64,000 nucleotides of DNA from an uncultured Saprospiraceae bacterium (GTDB lineage: Bacteria; Bacteroidota; Bacteroidia; Chitinophagales; Saprospiraceae): positions 28,514 through 92,513 of the forward strand of contig CAYRYD010000014.1 of NCBI GenBank assembly GCA_964428345.1, in the 5' to 3' direction. The position numbers and the translations under genes were made by a program. Positions 410-57,275 of the stretch are shown here, in pieces. Every line of letters starts with the position of its first letter. Position 1 is the stretch's first letter. The notes below the pieces were generated by a model. The model did not search any database and was not told the DNA's origin. It was given only the letters and a program-made list of their open reading frames with translations.

Positions 410-1399
410 TTAATTCGCGAGCGTTTTCTTCAGACATCCCAGGGCTTTACCGCTATCGAGTGATTCCCGAGCTTCGTTTATACAATCCTCAAAACTGCGT
501 TCAGGATGGAAGCGGTGAATTGCAAGGCCGGCATTGGCATAGATCACATTTCTCTGGGCTTCCGTTCCCTTCCCCTCCAGGATGCTGATAAAAATTTCGG
601 CTGCTTCGGGGACGGTCTGTCCTCCATACAGATCTTCCTCATTGATGGTGGAAAAACCAAGATCTTCGGGAGCGATAAACCGGTCGGTGTCACCGGTGCG
701 ATAAATAAATCGATCGGTGAGCGAAATTTCATCGTAACCGTCGAGGTTAAATATCACCGCAAAATTCGCCAGGTCTTCCTGTAAAATATATTGGTAAAGC
801 CGGGATAGATTCATGTCATATACTCCCAGAAAATAACGACTGGGACGGGCAGGATTCACAAGCGGGCCCAGCATATTAAAAAATGTTTTCATGCCCAGAG
901 CTTTACGTACCGGACCCACAGCTTTCATGGCCGGATGAAAAAGCGGTGCATGCAGAAATATCATATTGCTACGGTCCAGGCGCCGGTTTATTTCATCCGG
1001 GTCATTGGAAAACTGATAACCCAGATGTTCCAGCACATTGGAGGAGCCACTCACCGATGATACCCCATAATTACCGTGTTTAGCTACGCTGTAGCCGGCA
1101 CCGGCAACGACAAAGGCAGTAAGGGTCGAAATATTGAAAGTATTTTTATTATCCCCTCCGGTCCCGACAATGTCAATGGAGTCCCTGCCGTGCAAATCAA
1201 CCGGCTTGCACAATTGCAACAGGGCATCGCGAAATCCGTGCAACTCATCTTTACTGATGGGCCGCATTTTAAAGACCGTCAGAAATGAAGCAAGCTGGGC
1301 ATCGTTATATTTTCCTTCTGCGATGAGTAATAAAATGTCGGTTGCTTCCCGCCTGCTTAGTCTTTTCTGATCAAAAAGTTCTTCCAGGATCTTTTTCAT
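410..1399 (-). CDS. trpD: anthranilate phosphoribosyltransferase
   Basis: 329-aa ORF with GTGGDNKNTFNIST and KHGNYGVSS..GSSNVLE motifs; lies between trpG and trpC. Confidence 0.95.
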   Translation of the reverse strand: MKKILEELFDQKRLSRREATDILLLIAEGKYNDAQLASFLTVFKMRPISKDELHGFRDALLQLCKPVDLHGRDSIDIVGTGGDNKNTFNISTLTAFVVAGAGYSVAKHGNYGVSSVSGSSNVLEHLGYQFSNDPDEINRRLDRSNMIFLHAPLFHPAMKAVGPVRKALGMKTFFNMLGPLVNPARPSRYFLGVYDMNLSRLYQYILQEDLANFAVIFNLDGYDEISLTDRFIYRTGDTDRFIAPEDLGFSTINEEDLYGGQTVPEAAEIFISILEGKGTEAQRNVIYANAGLAIHRFHPERSFEDCINEARESLDSGKALGCLKKTLAN

Positions 1400-1411: not shown

Positions 1412-2032
1412 TTAAGCCAGATAGCGACTGTCCTTTTTCTCAAATAATTTATCCTGATATTTTTCGGCATAGACGAAAAAATTCTTTAGGATTTTCTTAC
1501 CCACCGGAGTTAGGATGCTTTCCGGATGAAACTGAACTCCACGGACATTAAACTGCCGGTGCCTGAGAGCCATGATCGTTCCGGACTCATCTTCGGCAGT
1601 AATTTCCAGACAATCGGGAAAATCTTTTTTCTCGACGATCCATGAATGATAACGGCCGGCCTCAAATTGCTTCGGCAGCCCCTCAAACAATACATCATCT
1701 TTTATCACGGTAATGCTGGTAGCAACTCCGTGATATACCTGATCCAGATTATGCAACCGGCCGCCAAAAACTTCACCGATGGCCTGGTGACCCAGACATA
1801 CCCCCAAAATTGATTTGGTCTGGTGATACTGTCGGATCACATCAGGAGTAATTCCCGATTCCGAAGGCAATCCCGGACCGGGTGATAAGACAATGACATC
1901 ATACAATTCCACTTCATTCAATCCGATGGCATCGTTCCGGAAGACATCTACCGGATAGGGAATGATCTCGCGGATATATTGCACCAGATTATAGGTAAAG
2001 GAATCGTAATTATCGACGACTAATATTTTCAT
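1412..2032 (-). CDS. trpG: anthranilate synthase component II (glutamine amidotransferase)
   Basis: 206-aa ORF with class-I GATase motifs GVCLGHQAIG, RYHSW and GVQFHPES; starts 7 nt after the trpE stop. Confidence 0.93.
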   Translation of the reverse strand: MKILVVDNYDSFTYNLVQYIREIIPYPVDVFRNDAIGLNEVELYDVIVLSPGPGLPSESGITPDVIRQYHQTKSILGVCLGHQAIGEVFGGRLHNLDQVYHGVATSITVIKDDVLFEGLPKQFEAGRYHSWIVEKKDFPDCLEITAEDESGTIMALRHRQFNVRGVQFHPESILTPVGKKILKNFFVYAEKYQDKLFEKKDSRYLA

Positions 2033-2039
2033 GGCGGTG

Positions 2040-3437
2040 TTAATTTAATTGTTCTGCTAATACCAGGGCCCTTTTCAGCGCTCCCAGTTTATTATTGACT
2101 TCCTGCAATTCGCTTTCTTCCACGCTGGCTGAAACAATCCCGGCTCCAGCCTGGCGATAGAGCACATTATTCATACTTAAAAAAGAACGAATAATGATTG
2201 CATGTACGATATCCCCGTTAAAATTAAGAAACCCAATCCCCCCTCCGTAAAACGACCGGTTGATGTTTTCGTACCGGTTGATCAGTTCGATGGCTTTGTA
2301 TTTGGGGGCCCCTGAAAGCGTACCTGCCGGAAAGGTATCTCCAAAAATCTGTATCGTATTGGCATTTTCATCCAGTTGACCGGACACTTTTGAAACCAGG
2401 TGAATCACATGGCTGAAATACTGTACTTCCTTCAATACCTGAACCCTGACATCATGACAGTGCCTTCCGAGGTCGTTACGGGCCAGATCCACCAGCATCA
2501 CGTGTTCGGCATTTTCCTTGGGATCGGCGATCAGTTTTTCAGCGTTTACGGCATCTTCCTCATCCTTTCCTGTGCGCTTATAGGTGCCGGCAATCGGATT
2601 GACATAAGCGGTTTTTCCCTTGATCACCAGCTGGGATTCAGGCGAACTGCCAAAGATTTTGTATGACCCGTAGTCAAAATAATACAGATAGGGTGAAGGA
2701 TTGATCGATCGTAAAACCCTATACACTTTAAATTCATCACCTTTAAACTGCTGACGAAATTGTCTGGATAAAACAATCTGAAATACATCACCGATCTGGC
2801 AATGATACTTACCTTTGGTAACCAGGTCTTTGTATTCCTCATCGGTTAGATTACTACTCTCCTCACCAACCAGGGTAAAATCATAGTTGGGAATGTGATA
2901 ATCATACACCATACGCCGGATCTTGTCCAGCTGGCTGGATTCGCCTTCGAGCCGGTTCTCGATCAGGTATATTTCCTCATTAAAATGATTAATGGTAATC
3001 AGGTACCGATAAAAAATATAATGCATATCCGGTACCCGGGTCTGATGTTTTGCATCATCAAACCGGATCGTATCAAAATATCGTACGGCGTCAAAATTAG
3101 TGTGCCCGACAAAACCATTGACCGGTACCTGGTTGTTGCTTGATACCTGCATTTCATCGATAAAATTTTTAAATACCTCCGCCACTTCCATGGATCTGCC
3201 AAGACTGATCTTCTTCGTGGTTCCTCCCGGATACCGTAGACTGACGATACCATCTTCTACCCGGATCGAAGCCAGGGGTTCGAAGCCAATGATCGAATGA
3301 CTGTTTTCCGAAGACCGGTAGTCATTGCTTTCGAGAAGACAGGGAGATAAAAACCTGTCTCTTATTTTCAGAAAAATCGCCACCGGAGTCACGGTATCCG
3401 AAAGGAGTTTAACCGATTCGGTTATCACTTTTTTCAT
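2040..3437 (-). CDS. trpE: anthranilate synthase component I
   Basis: 465-aa ORF with chorismate-binding motifs LSRQF, GTLSGAPK and SFYGGGIGF; first gene of the trp cluster. Confidence 0.95.
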   Translation of the reverse strand: MKKVITESVKLLSDTVTPVAIFLKIRDRFLSPCLLESNDYRSSENSHSIIGFEPLASIRVEDGIVSLRYPGGTTKKISLGRSMEVAEVFKNFIDEMQVSSNNQVPVNGFVGHTNFDAVRYFDTIRFDDAKHQTRVPDMHYIFYRYLITINHFNEEIYLIENRLEGESSQLDKIRRMVYDYHIPNYDFTLVGEESSNLTDEEYKDLVTKGKYHCQIGDVFQIVLSRQFRQQFKGDEFKVYRVLRSINPSPYLYYFDYGSYKIFGSSPESQLVIKGKTAYVNPIAGTYKRTGKDEEDAVNAEKLIADPKENAEHVMLVDLARNDLGRHCHDVRVQVLKEVQYFSHVIHLVSKVSGQLDENANTIQIFGDTFPAGTLSGAPKYKAIELINRYENINRSFYGGGIGFLNFNGDIVHAIIIRSFLSMNNVLYRQAGAGIVSASVEESELQEVNNKLGALKRALVLAEQLN

Positions 3438-3459
3438 TTCATTTAATTTATGGTTTGTG

Positions 3460-3506
3460 CCAAAAGGAAGCGGCTCGCCGGGTGTTCCGACGAGCCGCTT
3501 TTTTAT
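3460..3506 (-). terminator. attenuator/terminator hairpin between the trp leader ORF and trpE
   Basis: On the minus-strand RNA, AAGCGGCUCGUCGG (3500-3487), loop AACAC, CCGGCGAGCCGCUU (3481-3468). This is a 14-bp stem with one G.U pair, which would be a C.A mismatch on the plus-strand transcript. It is followed by CCUUUUG and lies 30 nt upstream of the trpE ATG. Confidence 0.6.
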
Positions 3507-3530
3507 ATGATTTTAACAAAGTGTGGCCTA

Positions 3531-3593
3531 TCAATACACCCTCTTAAGTATATTGTAAGACCACCACCAGTTTTTGTTATTGAATTTTTTCAT
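3531..3593 (-). CDS. trp operon leader peptide, 20 aa: MKKFNNKNWWWSYNILKRVY
   Basis: Hand-translated minus-strand ORF ATG(3593)...TGA(3531), with three consecutive TGG codons at 3561-3569. It sits between a promoter-like element and the terminator hairpin upstream of trpE. It is below the length cutoff of the ORF track. Confidence 0.65.
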   Translation of the reverse strand: MKKFNNKNWWWSYNILKRVY

Positions 3594-3606
3594 GACTTTC
3601 AAGTGT

Positions 3607-3637
3607 CAAATATATGCGCTTTTTCCTTACATGCAAA
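3607..3637 (-). promoter_or_regulatory. Bacteroidota-type promoter (TTTG-N19-TATATTTG) for the trp leader
   Basis: On the minus strand, TTTG (3637-3634), a 19-nt spacer, then TATATTTG (3614-3607). This matches the TTTG/TAnnTTTG -33/-7 consensus and ends 13 nt upstream of the leader ATG. Confidence 0.5.
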
Positions 3638-3734
3638 AACTGGACCCAATTTTTTTTGGCAATTGGTTCCTTCAGGTCTTCCCGGCTTTTTTAAGACGGC
3701 AGTACCTATCGCATATCCGGATTGAGAGATCTTC

Positions 3735-5366
<1,632 letters not shown>

Positions 5367-27686: not shown

Positions 27687-28625
27687 ATGAAGCGAAAGAC
27701 ATTTATTAGAAATGCCGGATTGAGCGCCTTGGCCGGAGGTGTTGGAAACCTTTTTTCGGTATCGACACCACGTCAAATTTTTCCAGAACCCGTCCATCGC
27801 ATCAAACTGGCGGTTTCTTCTTATTCGTACTGGCACTTTCGCCCACCTAAAATAACCATTCATGAAGTGATTGAAAAAGCGGCCCAACTCGGGGTGGAGG
27901 GGGTGGATATCCTGCACCGGCAAATGGACAGCGAAGAGCGGGAATATCTGATGTCGATCAAGCAAAAAGCATTTGAACAGGGCATTGACCTGATCTGCCT
28001 GTCCATCCATCAGGATTTTGTCGATCCCCTACCGGAGGAGCGGCAAAAAGCAGTTGATCACACGCTCCATTGCATTGACCTGGCCTATCAGTTGGGAATA
28101 CCGTGTATCCGGCTGAACAGCGGGCGCTGGAATACGATCCAGTCCTTTGATGATCTGATGACCAAACGGGGTGAAGAACCACCGATTGCCGGATATCAGG
28201 AAGAGGACGCTTTCAACTGGTGTATCGACGGCATTCAGCAATGTCTGGGACGGGCGCAGGAAAACGGTGTTTTGCTGGCCCTCGAAAACCATTGGGGCCT
28301 GACCCGCACCGTGGAAGGATTATTGAGAATTGTGCAAACCATCAATTCACCCTGGCTGGGAGTCTTAATGGACACCGGCAATTTTCTGGAAGACCCCTAT
28401 GAAAAGCTGCAACAGATCGCTCCATACACCCGGTTTGTCCAGGCAAAAACCTATTATGGTGGTGGCGAATGGTACACCCTGGATCTGGATTACCGGAGGA
28501 TCAGCAGAATTTTACAGGAGGCAGATTACCGGGGATATGTCGCCATCGAGTTTGAAGGGAAAGCTCCGGCTGATGAAGGCGTAAAAAAGAGTGTTGCACT
28601 GCTCCGGGAAGTCCTGAAAGGGTGA
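27687..28625 (+). CDS. exported sugar phosphate isomerase/epimerase (xylose isomerase-like TIM barrel), paralog 3
   Basis: Tat-like leader MKRKTFIRNAGLSALAGG. TIM-barrel motifs include LALENHWG, LMDTGNF and VAIEFEG. I place the start at the ATG at 27687; the track ORF from 27504 looks like a spurious 5' extension. Confidence 0.8.
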   Translation: MKRKTFIRNAGLSALAGGVGNLFSVSTPRQIFPEPVHRIKLAVSSYSYWHFRPPKITIHEVIEKAAQLGVEGVDILHRQMDSEEREYLMSIKQKAFEQGIDLICLSIHQDFVDPLPEERQKAVDHTLHCIDLAYQLGIPCIRLNSGRWNTIQSFDDLMTKRGEEPPIAGYQEEDAFNWCIDGIQQCLGRAQENGVLLALENHWGLTRTVEGLLRIVQTINSPWLGVLMDTGNFLEDPYEKLQQIAPYTRFVQAKTYYGGGEWYTLDLDYRRISRILQEADYRGYVAIEFEGKAPADEGVKKSVALLREVLKG

Positions 28626-30050: not shown

Positions 30051-30998
30051 ATGGATCACATTCCGACCCGGGAAGATATTTCCATCACCCACCGGACTAT
30101 CCAGTCCTACATTCATCGTACTCCGGTTTTCGCCAACCAAACCATCAATCGCCTGACCGGGGCGCAGATCTACTGCAAATGCGAAAATTTTCAGAAAGTC
30201 GGAGCCTTTAAGATGCGGGGAGCCAGCAGTGCCGTCTCCGCTCTCGATGACGACCTGAAGTACAAGGGCATTGCCACGCATTCGTCCGGCAACCATGCCC
30301 AGGCAGTGGCCTTATCCGCCAAAATGCACGGCATTGAAGCGCATATCGTGATGCCGGAAAATGCCCCTTCCATCAAACGTCAAGCTGTCGAAGAATACGG
30401 CGCCACGGTCTATATCTCCGGCAATCTGATCAAAGACCGGGAGCAAAAAATGAAGGAAGTACTCGAAAAGACCGGCGCGACCTTTATTCACCCCTATAAC
30501 GATTACAACATCATTTCGGGTCAGGCAACCGCCGCCAAAGAACTCCTGGAAGAGTTCCCGGAACTGGACAGTGTCATAGCCCCGGTGGGTGGTGGTGGTT
30601 TGCTCAGCGGAACTGCCCTCTCGACCAGGTACCATGACCATACTATCCAGGTCTACGGTGCTGAACCCAGACTGGTCGACGATGCCGCCCGTTCTTTCAA
30701 AAGCGGTAAGATTGAGACCAATCAGCGTATTGACACCATCGCCGATGGATTAAGAACCATGTTGGGAGATAAGACTTTCGGGATTATCACTCAATTTGCT
30801 GACGACATCCTCACTGTCGAAGAAGAAAGCATCATCAGAGCAATGCGGCTGATCTGGGAGCGCATGAAGATCATCGTCGAACCCTCCGGTGCCGTACCGC
30901 TGGCCGCCGTACTCGAACATTCCGACCTTTTCGCCGGGAAGAAAGTGGGTCTGATCCTTTCCGGAGGCAATGTCGACTTGCAGGATTTACCATTTTAG
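30051..30998 (+). CDS. PLP-dependent threonine/serine dehydratase (fold type II)
   Basis: 315-aa ORF with the PLP-Lys motif ENFQKVGAFKMRGA, SSGNHAQAVA and the Gly loop PVGGGGLLSG. Confidence 0.88.
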   Translation: MDHIPTREDISITHRTIQSYIHRTPVFANQTINRLTGAQIYCKCENFQKVGAFKMRGASSAVSALDDDLKYKGIATHSSGNHAQAVALSAKMHGIEAHIVMPENAPSIKRQAVEEYGATVYISGNLIKDREQKMKEVLEKTGATFIHPYNDYNIISGQATAAKELLEEFPELDSVIAPVGGGGLLSGTALSTRYHDHTIQVYGAEPRLVDDAARSFKSGKIETNQRIDTIADGLRTMLGDKTFGIITQFADDILTVEEESIIRAMRLIWERMKIIVEPSGAVPLAAVLEHSDLFAGKKVGLILSGGNVDLQDLPF

Positions 30999-31939: not shown

Positions 31940-33172
31940 ATGACTTTTAGGGATCTCAATCTGCATGAATCGTTGCTGGAAGCCATCTCATATATGGGAT
32001 TTGAGACACCCACACCAATCCAGCAACAGGCGATACCACAGATTTTAGCCGGCCGGGATGTACTGGCCTGTGCACAAACCGGAACCGGAAAAACCGCCGC
32101 TTTCATTTTACCTATACTGGATATGTTGTCGGGAATGACCGATCATTCGGTCAAAACATTGGTGATTGTACCTACCAGGGAACTGGCAATTCAGATCGAT
32201 CAGCAGATTCAGGGATTGGGATATTTTGTCAATATCGAATCGATTGCCATCTATGGTGGTGGTGACGGATCGGAATGGGATCAGCAAAAAGTAGCCCTGA
32301 CCAAAGGGGCAGACATCATTGTGGCTACTCCCGGCAAATTCATTTCACATCTGAATCTGGGATATGTCAAACTGGACAAAGTACGGCACCTGATCCTGGA
32401 TGAAGCCGACCGGATGCTCGACATGGGTTTTCATGATGACATTCAGAAAATCATGTCCTTCTTGCCGAAGCAGCGTCAAAATCTGATGTTCAGTGCTACG
32501 ATGCCGCCGAAAATCAAGCAACTGGCCAAGAAAATCCTGAGTGATCCTTTTGAAATCACCCTTTCGCTCAGCAAACCGGCTGAAGGAGTCTTGCAAGCCG
32601 CCTATATGGTTCATGAAGACCAGAAGGCTCCATTGATCAAAAGTCTGATCAGCGGTAAAAAAGAGTACAAAAGCATCCTGATTTTTGCATCGACCAAAAA
32701 GAAAGTCAATCAGATTTCCCGGACCCTGCAGAGTGGCAGCAATGAAGTCGCGGAGATTTCTTCCGATCTGGAGCAAAATGAACGGGAAGAGGTCCTGGCT
32801 AAATTCAAGTCGAAACAAATCCGGGTTCTGGTGGCCACCGATGTATTAAGCCGGGGAATCGACATCAAGGATATCAATCTGGTGATCAATTACGACGTGC
32901 CTTCGGATGCCGAAGATTATGTACACCGGGTAGGAAGAACCGCCCGGGCAGAAACCACCGGGGTCGCACTCACCCTGATCAACGAAGAGGATATTCCAAA
33001 ATTTGCCCGGATTGAAAAACTGATTGAAGCCGAAATCATGAAAATCCCCCTGCCTTCCGAATTCGGTCCGGCTCCGGTTTGGGATCCGCGGGCCAGGCCC
33101 CGGCGAGACTTTGGCAGAAAAAGCCAGAAACCCAGAAAAAAACAAGCCCACGGTAGTCAAAGAAGGCGCTGA
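31940..33172 (+). CDS. rhlE: DEAD-box ATP-dependent RNA helicase with a basic C-terminal tail (RhlE-like)
   Basis: 410-aa ORF with the Q-motif region, AQTGTGKT, DEAD, SAT and HRVGRTAR, plus an Arg/Lys-rich tail. Confidence 0.9.
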   Translation: MTFRDLNLHESLLEAISYMGFETPTPIQQQAIPQILAGRDVLACAQTGTGKTAAFILPILDMLSGMTDHSVKTLVIVPTRELAIQIDQQIQGLGYFVNIESIAIYGGGDGSEWDQQKVALTKGADIIVATPGKFISHLNLGYVKLDKVRHLILDEADRMLDMGFHDDIQKIMSFLPKQRQNLMFSATMPPKIKQLAKKILSDPFEITLSLSKPAEGVLQAAYMVHEDQKAPLIKSLISGKKEYKSILIFASTKKKVNQISRTLQSGSNEVAEISSDLEQNEREEVLAKFKSKQIRVLVATDVLSRGIDIKDINLVINYDVPSDAEDYVHRVGRTARAETTGVALTLINEEDIPKFARIEKLIEAEIMKIPLPSEFGPAPVWDPRARPRRDFGRKSQKPRKKQAHGSQRRR

Positions 33173-55565: not shown

Positions 55566-55605
55566 GTCTTCCTGGGCCTGGGCGAATAAATTCGCCCCTC
55601 CAAAC

Positions 55606-55639
55606 AAAAAAGGCCGTGCCTTTCGACACGACCTTTTTT
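55606..55639. terminator. probable bidirectional terminator between convergent genes
   Basis: A6 run, then stem GGCCGTG (55612-55618) / CACGACC (55627-55633) with one mismatch, then a T6 run (55634-55639). It lies 22 nt from the susD stop. Confidence 0.55.
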
Positions 55640-55661
55640 ATTAATTTAATAAAATTCAAAC

Positions 55662-57275
55662 CTATTCGGTTCCTCCATCCCACCACACTCTGGAAGTGTA
55701 GTTGTTGAAATTTCCCTTATCAAAATTCGGGTTAGCAGCCACTTCCACGTTCGGATAACGCAGTCTTCTGGGAATGATACCACCAGTGACATTAGACTGA
55801 TCGGTCGTGTTCGCAACAAGAACCGGATAACCGGTTCGTCTCCAGTCACACCAGGCTTCCCACCAGTTCATGAATTTGCTGACCCACATTTGTTCGCCGA
55901 TCATCTCCAGGGCGGGCTTGTGTGTGCCATAGGGATAATTGCTCAGATAAGTTGCAACCTGCTCGTCGGTCACCACCAGTGTCTCATCATAGGGCGTATA
56001 CATCTGCATCGCCGACTTCACGCCTGCTTCATAATGGTCTTTGGCTGTTCCACTGATGCCAGATCCAATACCTCTTTCGATCGCTTCAGCCAGGAGAAAC
56101 TCTACTTCTGCATGATTCATGATCATGTATGGATCGTCAAGATCAAGCAAACGATAGTTGATCTTGGAAAAAGTCTCGTCTTCGACCACCATTCCACCCT
56201 CCATGGCTTCGATGTCTGACAAGGAAAACCCACTGGGAACACCCCGCTGTTTCAGGGGATCGGATTCGATAGGTGTCCAACCACTAGTGGTCCAAGTGCC
56301 AATACCACTGCTGAGGATCATGAGACGGGGATCGTCGTCAGCTACACTGTTCTGATCCGTGCCTTTTAAAAAATCAATCAGGGTTTTACCCAAAGTACTC
56401 TGGTTCCCGCCATCACTTGGGAAAAAAGCTCGGGAGAGCCCGTTTTGGTCCTGCCATTGACTCGGGCCAATATCCATGGGTATCCAGACATTATCGTCAT
56501 TGCTGGTGAATACCCCACCTGATACCGCCTTGGTGACATAGGTAGCTGCCATCCCGGGATCTACATTGGAAACCCGCATGGCATAGCGAAGCAAGAGCGA
56601 GTTACCCCATTTTTTCCATTTCGTGATGTCACCCTGGTAAATCATGTCGGCCCGGGCAAAACCCTCATCCGGGTTGGATGGGCTCATGCCATTGACCGCC
56701 TCGTCCAGTTCCTGAAGCATCGCCGGATAAATGATCGACTGATTATCATACTTGGGAAAGAAGACACCTTCGATTCCCTGATTGGCTTCCGTAAAGGGTA
56801 CTGCTCCGTAGAAATCGGTCAGCCGGAAGAAACTCCAGGCCTTGAGAATCCGGGCAGCATTCCGCATGTTGGTCTTATTCCCCTCATCATAACCTCCCGG
56901 TCCGGTTTGTTTGAGAATCTCCGCAATGTTCTTGAGTTGATCCTGATAGGTGAAGTCGAAGGGAGCAGTGGCTGTTTCCTCGTTGTGCCGGTAAAAATTA
57001 CCCACTGCCGAAATACTTCCGGTGGTCACCAGTTGCTGAATGGCCCCTCCGCAGAGTCCAAGGTTGGTACGCCAGTCGATATAGCGGTTATCACCAGTTG
57101 AGCCACCGGAGGCAAGGGCCAGTTCCGCAGTGGTAAAGATAAAATTCAAATCAATCTGGTTGACCGCCTGTGGGTTGATGTTCAGATCCTGCAGTTCATC
57201 GGTGTTGCAACTCGGCATGAGCAGCAACCCGGCAACCAGGCAGGAAAGAAACGTATATATATTATGAAATTTCAT
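55662..57275 (-). CDS. SusD/RagB family nutrient-binding outer-membrane lipoprotein
   Basis: 537-aa ORF with lipobox LLLMPSC, TPR-like helical content, and a position immediately downstream of a SusC-type gene. Confidence 0.9.
   Translation of the reverse strand: MKFHNIYTFLSCLVAGLLLMPSCNTDELQDLNINPQAVNQIDLNFIFTTAELALASGGSTGDNRYIDWRTNLGLCGGAIQQLVTTGSISAVGNFYRHNEETATAPFDFTYQDQLKNIAEILKQTGPGGYDEGNKTNMRNAARILKAWSFFRLTDFYGAVPFTEANQGIEGVFFPKYDNQSIIYPAMLQELDEAVNGMSPSNPDEGFARADMIYQGDITKWKKWGNSLLLRYAMRVSNVDPGMAATYVTKAVSGGVFTSNDDNVWIPMDIGPSQWQDQNGLSRAFFPSDGGNQSTLGKTLIDFLKGTDQNSVADDDPRLMILSSGIGTWTTSGWTPIESDPLKQRGVPSGFSLSDIEAMEGGMVVEDETFSKINYRLLDLDDPYMIMNHAEVEFLLAEAIERGIGSGISGTAKDHYEAGVKSAMQMYTPYDETLVVTDEQVATYLSNYPYGTHKPALEMIGEQMWVSKFMNWWEAWCDWRRTGYPVLVANTTDQSNVTGGIIPRRLRYPNVEVAANPNFDKGNFNNYTSRVWWDGGTE

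Follow-up and report, generated by a model that had tools for sequence, protein, structure and literature searches.

The 64-kb window analysed here, a stretch of 64,000 nucleotides (nt) from an uncultured Saprospiraceae bacterium (GenBank assembly GCA_964428345.1, contig CAYRYD010000014.1, positions 28,514 to 92,513), carries directly upstream of trpE a leader that is, with high likelihood, a ribosome-mediated transcription attenuator of the trpEGDCFBA operon and a divergent homologue of the Bacteroid-trp class of leader RNAs (Rfam RF01692). The element is very probably a real tryptophan sensor. The original prediction, made from the sequence alone, had already read this leader as a trp attenuator. 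That reading now draws support from a conserved Trp mini-open reading frame (mini-ORF) and from mutually exclusive, covarying folds, and the operon extends beyond the trpEGDC first named. Coordinates refer to the window, and the minus strand is read throughout unless stated otherwise. The leader comprises the following parts.

3634-3637, minus strand: promoter −33-like element TTTG, 19 nt upstream of the −7 box
3607-3614, minus strand: promoter −7 box TATATTTG, a fit to the sigma-A consensus of Bacteroidota (TAnnTTTG)
3531-3593, minus strand: leader ORF for MKKFNNKNWWWSYNILKRVY, 20 codons and a TGA stop; ATG at 3593-3591, 13 nt past the −7 box; UGA at 3533-3531
3561-3569, minus strand: three tandem Trp codons UGG UGG UGG (UGGUGGUGG), the proposed sensing site; invariant columns in the alignment of relatives
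3514-3579, minus strand: anti-antiterminator hairpin, −23.8 kcal/mol in isolation; part of the minimum-free-energy (MFE) fold
3480-3541, minus strand: antiterminator helix, −20.5 to −20.7 kcal/mol
3468-3500, minus strand: intrinsic terminator hairpin of 14 bp with loop AACAC, −27.4 kcal/mol; arms 3500-3487 and 3481-3468
3459-3467, minus strand: U tract CCUUUUGGC, imperfect, following the UU at 3469-3468 that closes the stem; tail CCUUUUG

The promoter-like TTTG-N19-TATATTTG at 3637-3607, the mini-ORF 13 nt beyond it with its Trp codons at 3569-3561, and the 14-bp hairpin with its CCUUUUG tail ahead of the trpE ATG at 3437 had all been located in the original prediction, and each coordinate was confirmed. 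The codons of the leader ORF read ATG AAA AAA TTC AAT AAC AAA AAC TGG TGG TGG TCT TAC AAT ATA CTT AAG AGG GTG TAT TGA. The terminator hairpin lies 30 nt past the leader stop (spacer 3530-3501) and 30 nt before the trpE ATG, with a gap of 93 nt from stop to ATG; its single wobble, U3490.G3478, would be an A.C mismatch in the plus-strand transcript, a strand asymmetry that had likewise been pointed out correctly.

The −7 box fits the published Bacteroidota sigma-A consensus, TAnnTTTG (PMC9723704). Of 27 relatives, 18 have a strict match to this consensus in the 90 nt preceding the leader ATG, in most cases at a distance of 13-22 nt, and 16 of the 27 also have a TTG located 17-21 nt upstream of the box.

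Between promoter and terminator, the anti-antiterminator hairpin consists of an outer helix, in which 3579-3558 (Trp codons included) pairs with 3529-3514 just past the stop, and an inner hairpin within the ORF (3555-3546 with 3541-3532). The outer helix is formed by 3568-3558 with 3529-3520 and is lengthened by 3579-3574 with 3519-3514. The whole structure corresponds to the hairpin of the RF01692 consensus. All but at most three of the Trp-codon bases pair downstream in 23 of 27 relatives, usually 3-20 nt past the stop; the z score of this Trp-codon pairing averages −2.9 over 27 sequences and reaches −5.1 in the window. Folding of the 177-nt leader gives −55.3 kcal/mol (z = −6.6), a value that none of 200 shuffles equalled, and the locus ranks first in a genome-wide scan for amino-acid-run mini-ORFs with a following terminator.

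The alternative fold is an antiterminator that reaches from the end of the leader ORF into the terminator. In its core, GGGUGU at 3541-3536 is exactly complementary to ACACCC at 3485-3480. Beyond this, UUGAU at 3534-3530, with the stop codon inside, pairs with GUCGG at 3491-3487, and the lower pairs are formed by GGCC (3528-3525) with GGCU (3496-3493) and CUUU (3521-3518) with AAAG (3501-3498). The GGGUGU:ACACCC pairing had been noticed before and stands; its description as a weak candidate does not, as it is the core of the covarying 3541-3480 helix.

In constrained folds of the window sequence, a ribosome placed on any of the UGG codons, with the transcript extended to 3480, makes the antiterminator (−20.7 kcal/mol) the MFE structure. 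Once the ribosome is moved to the stop codon (masked through 3521), 0 to −0.6 kcal/mol of structure is left before the terminator, and the −27.4 kcal/mol terminator folds. A ribosome placed on a UGG codon gives a consistent alternative helix in relatives too. In these models, terminator and antiterminator are mutually exclusive folds, with the antiterminator dependent on ribosome position. The original prediction had hinged on such a pair of exclusive structures, and the alternative antiterminator was not only found but covaries.

We infer a mechanism in which the transcription start, translation of the leader, coupling between transcription and translation and the response to tryptophan are all putative. 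Transcription would begin a few nt past TATATTTG, and the 20-codon leader would be translated while the polymerase transcribes the rest of the leader. When Trp-tRNA is plentiful, the ribosome would reach the UGA at 3533-3531 and cover or unwind 3541-3521, the segment that the antiterminator needs; with 3541-3521 blocked, the 3500-3468 hairpin would form and transcription would end ahead of trpE, at the U-rich tail. Without a loaded ribosome, the antiterminator 5′ strand would be sequestered in the 3579-3514 hairpin, and termination would follow likewise. When Trp-tRNA is scarce, the ribosome would stall on UGG UGG UGG at 3569-3561 and melt the 5′ arm of the 3579-3514 hairpin. The freed 3541-3518 segment would then pair with 3501-3480, that is, with the terminator 5′ arm, the loop and the first three bases of the 3′ arm; the terminator could not form in time, and the polymerase would read into trpE.

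A number of observations count against this reading. The U tract is interrupted (UUCCUUUUG), leaving termination efficiency uncertain, and the caution that the original prediction had voiced on this point holds; in relatives, the U tails are mostly 4-8 unbroken U, and an interrupted tail is also found in several (L036, L077, L014 and L020). The promoter placement implies a leader 5′ untranslated region of only ~7 nt, and leader translation is assumed. The match to RF01692 scores 31.4 bits, below the gathering score of 49, which is an operational threshold, not a biological feature. The relatives used for comparison are phylogenetically non-independent. Finally, the antiterminator energy is modest when set against shuffled upstream segments, with z = −0.84 in the window and a mean of −1.0 over 27 sequences. 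Because this energy test is too weak to decide, covariation and partner-swap tests were used, and the case for the antiterminator rests on covariation.

First, covariation was scored in an alignment of 27 sequences made with plain MAFFT and fitted to no structure. For the antiterminator, the count took in the 8-pair core only; the lower part (GGCC:GGCU and CUUU:AAAG) was left out because its register shifts among relatives and it has no fixed alignment columns. Within the core, 86.9% of cells are paired; sliding the partner by 1-3 columns lowers this to 44% or less. Both sides have changed in 6 of the 8 pairs, with 29 compensatory cells, and the covariation score is 0.423 compared with 0.208 for shuffles, none of 500 being as good. 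The terminator helix in the same alignment has 98.6% of cells paired and 9 of 14 pairs changed on both sides, and it scores 0.300 against 0.157 for shuffles. Judged by this alignment, the covariation of the antiterminator is as good as the terminator's own.

Second, the two strands of the antiterminator fit each other within each leader. Helix scores summed over own partners reach 472, compared with 370 ± 14 for swapped partners (0 of 20,000 permutations as high). The same test on 16 distinct non-Saprospiraceae variants gives 286 against 211 ± 13, again with 0 of 20,000. Each relative shows complementarity between the final codons of its ORF and its own terminator loop together with the top of its 3′ arm, and compensatory variants occur, such as CGAGUGA:UCACUCG, CGAAUGA:UCAUUCG, CGGAUGA:UCAUCCG, CCGAAUC:GAUUCGG, GAGUAAU:AUUACUC and GUCGUG:CACGAC. 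This pairing of the stop-proximal segment with the terminator loop extends to Flavobacteriaceae (GUGAGA:UCUCAC and GCGAG:CUCGC) and Cytophagales (GCGCGAACGG:CUGUUCGCGC).

These patterns make it probable, if less so than the attenuator assignment itself, that Bacteroidota trp leaders share a phylum-wide covarying antiterminator, whose 5′ strand consists of the last ORF codons plus the stop and whose 3′ strand consists of the terminator 5′ arm, the loop and the top of the 3′ arm. If so, the stop codon would itself be part of the switch, and the comparison would provide evidence for ribosome-position sensing, and hence for transcription–translation coupling, in a phylum without Shine-Dalgarno sequences. 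Neither the Rfam model nor the 2010 description of the class contains the covarying antiterminator.

The terminator arm is conserved in primary sequence across families (L005-L110; 3498-3487 in the window), reading GGCUUGUCG in Saprospiraceae and GGCUUAUC in Flavobacteriaceae, which is unusual for a terminator stem. Such conservation could in principle stem from a trans-acting binder. A shared antiterminator would give GGCUUGUCG or GGCUUAUC two pairing partners and would explain it otherwise: the arm would have to remain complementary to its 3′ partner as well as to the post-stop segment, the latter being itself tied by pairing to the invariant UGG run.

The conserved arm is one of the points in favour of tryptophan control that works without classical ribosome stalling at an intrinsic terminator, through Rho, through an unknown RNA-binding protein or tRNA, or mainly through a translational effect on trpE. 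We regard this as improbable. The imperfect U tract would suit it, and we know of no demonstration of transcription–translation coupling in this lineage. Against it, the in-frame Trp run is the only conserved feature of the peptide, terminator and antiterminator both covary as RNA helices, and the antiterminator 5′ strand lies at or over the stop codon, as ribosome-position sensing predicts. The 93-nt gap between leader stop and trpE ATG argues against translational coupling, and two pairing partners for the arm, one of them tied to the fixed UGG run, may account for the conservation that would otherwise point to a binder. Moreover, searches of the 5.87-Mb genome, which is 99.8% complete, returned zero matches to TRAP (PF02081), TrpR (PF01371) or the T-box (RF00230), so that the leader may be the sole tryptophan-specific control of the trp operon.

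Third, similarity searches place the ribosome-mediated attenuator in a known class. When 3300-3800 was searched against all of Rfam, the top-scoring match was RF01692, Bacteroid-trp ("Bacteroidete tryptophan peptide leader RNA"), at 3489-3613 on the minus strand with an E value of 0.11; genome-wide, the window element is also the best RF01692 match (E 0.32). The all-Rfam search of 3300-3800 returned no RF00513 (Trp_leader) match at E<=10. The covariance model of RF01692 aligns the window hairpin poorly and flags several non-canonical pairs in the UGG helix. A second genomic RF01692 match, C1:242691-242754, was rejected as noise (23 bits, E 10).

A covariance model built from 26 aligned relatives with the window sequence excluded, which we call R1, matches the window element at 3459-3584 on the minus strand with 81 bits and an E value of 1.6e-14 (1.5e-12 genome-wide), and this is its only strong match in the genome. 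A weaker R1 match at 55600-55703 on the minus strand (24.9 bits) was discarded: it covers the end of a 537-amino-acid (aa) ORF (...VWWDGGTE*) and an ordinary terminator, AAAAAGGUCGUGUCGAAAGGCACGGCCUUUUUUG, with no leader. Among 61 same-family genomes, RF01692 matches at E<=1 occur in 23, and three exceed the gathering score, at 49-55 bits. The homology is bridged by these relatives and by the 81-bit R1 match; on this sequence evidence, the element is a divergent homologue of the Bacteroid-trp class, of a kind known since 2010, that standard annotation misses because its score falls below the Rfam gathering threshold.

Fourth, the attenuator architecture is conserved together with its position. 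Of the 23 same-family RF01692 loci, 21 are directly upstream of trpE homologues, and all 21 of these leaders encode a WW, WWW or WWWW mini-ORF of 17-28 codons. Such a mini-ORF is also present in 73 of 78 further Bacteroidota trpE upstream regions, from Tenacibaculum, Polaribacter, Cytophagales, Roseivirga and others. The conservation of mini-ORF and hairpin, which the original prediction had proposed to check in relatives, is borne out by these counts and by the nearly complete pairing of the terminator helix described above. The Bacteroid-trp class, which that prediction did not name, is already described (PMC2864571) and widespread in the phylum.

The same-family leaders follow a common plan, in which the pre-Trp and UGG codons pair with the post-stop segment, an inner hairpin forms within the ORF, and an A-rich spacer leads to a terminator and U run. 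The strong terminator is shared, with the conserved arm GCGGCUUGUCGA...UCGACAAGCCGC, and the U tail usually pairs with the A run ahead of the stem. In L031 and L032, the closest relatives, the leader peptide is MKKFRNNNWWWTDNTQRRVY, which is evidently orthologous to that of the window. Outside the Trp run and the Asn/Thr-rich stretch that precedes it, the leader peptides vary widely, which fits codon sensing and not a functional peptide.

Two leaders have a doubled arrangement. Upstream of trpE in L004 are two tandem WWW mini-ORFs, at -278..-221 and -155..-68 from the ATG (MKIRNTYTWWWCLSEYEF and MIKKICNYYFKNLDEITIWWWCINYVRT), and in L101 there are likewise two, at -314..-242 and -145..-82. These may be tandem attenuators.

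The variability of the peptide bears on a further possibility, that the locus is a stand-alone small RNA (sRNA), a functional micropeptide or a plus-strand protein gene, unrelated to trp control. This is highly implausible. Weak, sub-threshold Rfam sRNA matches (E 0.1 to ~4) do exist, but they are driven by the terminator and lie far below gathering scores. On the plus strand, the region is overlapped by an ORF of 91 aa (3450-3725) and one of 101 aa (3574-3879); both were rejected as genes for want of any Pfam match, and the GC content falls to 0.29-0.33 over 3500-3650, as in intergenic DNA. A micropeptide would be hard to square with the wide variation outside the Trp run, and the linkage to trpE is invariant, contrary to any function unrelated to tryptophan.

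The genes around the attenuator, with their Pfam assignments where available, are as follows.

3735-5363: ABC-F ATPase gene, upstream of the leader
2040-3437, minus strand: trpE (Chorismate_bind and Anth_synt_I_N), first gene of the operon behind the leader, ATG at 3437
1412-2032, minus strand: trpG (GATase)
410-1399, minus strand: trpD (Glycos_transf_3)
from 363 downward, minus strand: trpC (IGPS)
past the left window edge, same strand of contig C14: trpF, trpB and trpA (PRAI, PALP and Trp_syntA)

With the window and the adjoining part of contig C14 taken together, the Pfam matches give a complete trpEGDCFBA operon, and the leader element is directly upstream of it. The nearest public genomes by TrpE are Bacteroidia and Saprospiraceae metagenome-assembled genomes, at 58-72% identity.

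The neighbouring ABC-F gene suggests another reading of the hairpin, as the terminator of that gene (3735-5363) or as a bidirectional terminator, with the WWW mini-ORF a coincidence. The interval from the ABC-F stop (3735) to the promoter-like site holds no convincing terminator; read on the plus strand, the palindrome has a better T run (TTTTTTATATGATTTT) behind it and yields an R1 match of 27.5 bits. Comparison across genomes goes the other way: the ABC-F gene adjoins the leader in 0 of ~108 relatives' loci, whereas leader ORF and hairpin are always found with trpE, so that the hairpin travels with trpE. We rejected the hairpin as the ABC-F terminator for this lack of synteny. A Bacteroidota-type promoter also stands between the ABC-F gene and the leader, and the A run before the stem usually pairs with the U tail in relatives. 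As to a bidirectional terminator, no plus-strand gene runs into the hairpin, and the G.U pair is valid only on the minus-strand transcript. This reading, too, is most unlikely.

The attenuator inferred for the trpE leader can be set beside known systems. In the Yanofsky model of the Escherichia coli trpL attenuator, tandem Trp codons precede a choice between a 1:2 hairpin with a 3:4 terminator and a 2:3 antiterminator. The predicted logic in the window is the same: segment 2 would be blocked by a ribosome at the stop and set free by one that stalls on the Trp codons. The window leader likewise has a terminator between leader ORF and trpE and a predicted antiterminator that depends on ribosome position. 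It differs from trpL in showing no sequence or covariance-model similarity to it (RF00513), in having three Trp codons versus two, and in an extra inner hairpin inside the ORF. The stop codon forms part of its antiterminator, which extends through the terminator loop and on into the 3′ arm. The leader has a −33/−7 promoter of Bacteroidota type and no Shine-Dalgarno sequence, and no TrpR works alongside. The Bacillus subtilis systems based on TRAP (MtrB) or the T-box share the choice between terminator and antiterminator in a trp leader; their sensor is a protein or uncharged tRNA, not a translating ribosome.

The closest counterpart is Bacteroid-trp itself, which Weinberg et al. (2010, Genome Biol 11:R31; PMC2864571, Additional file 1) described from the 5′ regions of trpB and trpE in Bacteroidetes. 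The authors presumed that it acts by attenuation; they called the motif "a loosely conserved hairpin" and for this reason drew no consensus (PMC2864571). With this class the window element shares the phylum, the position 5′ of trpE, a short ORF with tandem Trp codons whose UGGs fall in the 5′ arm of a hairpin, and the start of the conserved terminator arm (AAAAAGGCUUGUC in the RF01692 model, AAAAAAGCGGCUCGUC in the window); the same-family relatives above the gathering score have the full architecture. The differences are that the RF01692 model ends at the start of the terminator 5′ arm, with the full terminator and the covarying antiterminator outside it, that the window element scores below the gathering threshold (31.4 vs 49 bits), and that its U tract is interrupted.

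In Flavobacterium psychrophilum, a trp leader element has been noted and attenuation-like 5′ regions have been seen in the transcriptome (PMC9723704; PMC6414381). These leaders come from the same phylum and from another family, Flavobacteriaceae, with the arm GGCUUAUC and the loop UCAC or UCAU, and the transcript evidence is that organism's own. In the literature searched, we found in-silico and transcriptome mentions of Bacteroidota trp attenuators and no experimental dissection of one.

The regulatory logic of the window attenuator is textbook and opens no new question. This analysis adds formal support from covariation for the antiterminator, along with exact coordinates of the four segments, which turn the "loosely conserved hairpin" of 2010 into a concrete four-segment model that can be tested by mutation. 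An annotation gap is also corrected, namely a cis-acting tryptophan sensor missed by the Rfam gathering threshold; Saprospiraceae members that fall below the RF01692 threshold would be recovered with R1 or a rebuilt Rfam seed.

Two smaller observations were made alongside. The window contains four copies of the string TGGTGGTGG, where 0.58 would be expected, and none of 100 shuffles reaches four; the copies outside the leader, at 28457-28465, 30590-30598 and 32254-32262, are on the plus strand and presumably inside genes.

The same genome also holds, outside the window, a second leader-peptide attenuator candidate at C53:11282-11368 on the minus strand, where a mini-ORF encoding MQADQKTRFDIQMMSMMNGCCCLHLHWL follows a TACTTTTG box. 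A −21 kcal/mol terminator lies 32 nt past this mini-ORF and is followed by a gene for a 712-aa sulfite/nitrite reductase (NIR_SIR and NIR_SIR_ferr; C53:9051-11186). The reductase-like protein also has a weak C-terminal HEPN match (PF05168, 24.2 bits, residues 589-651), an odd pairing. Poly-Cys mini-ORFs, from CCC up to CCCCCCCCC, stand upstream of 13 of 14 same-family homologues of this reductase.

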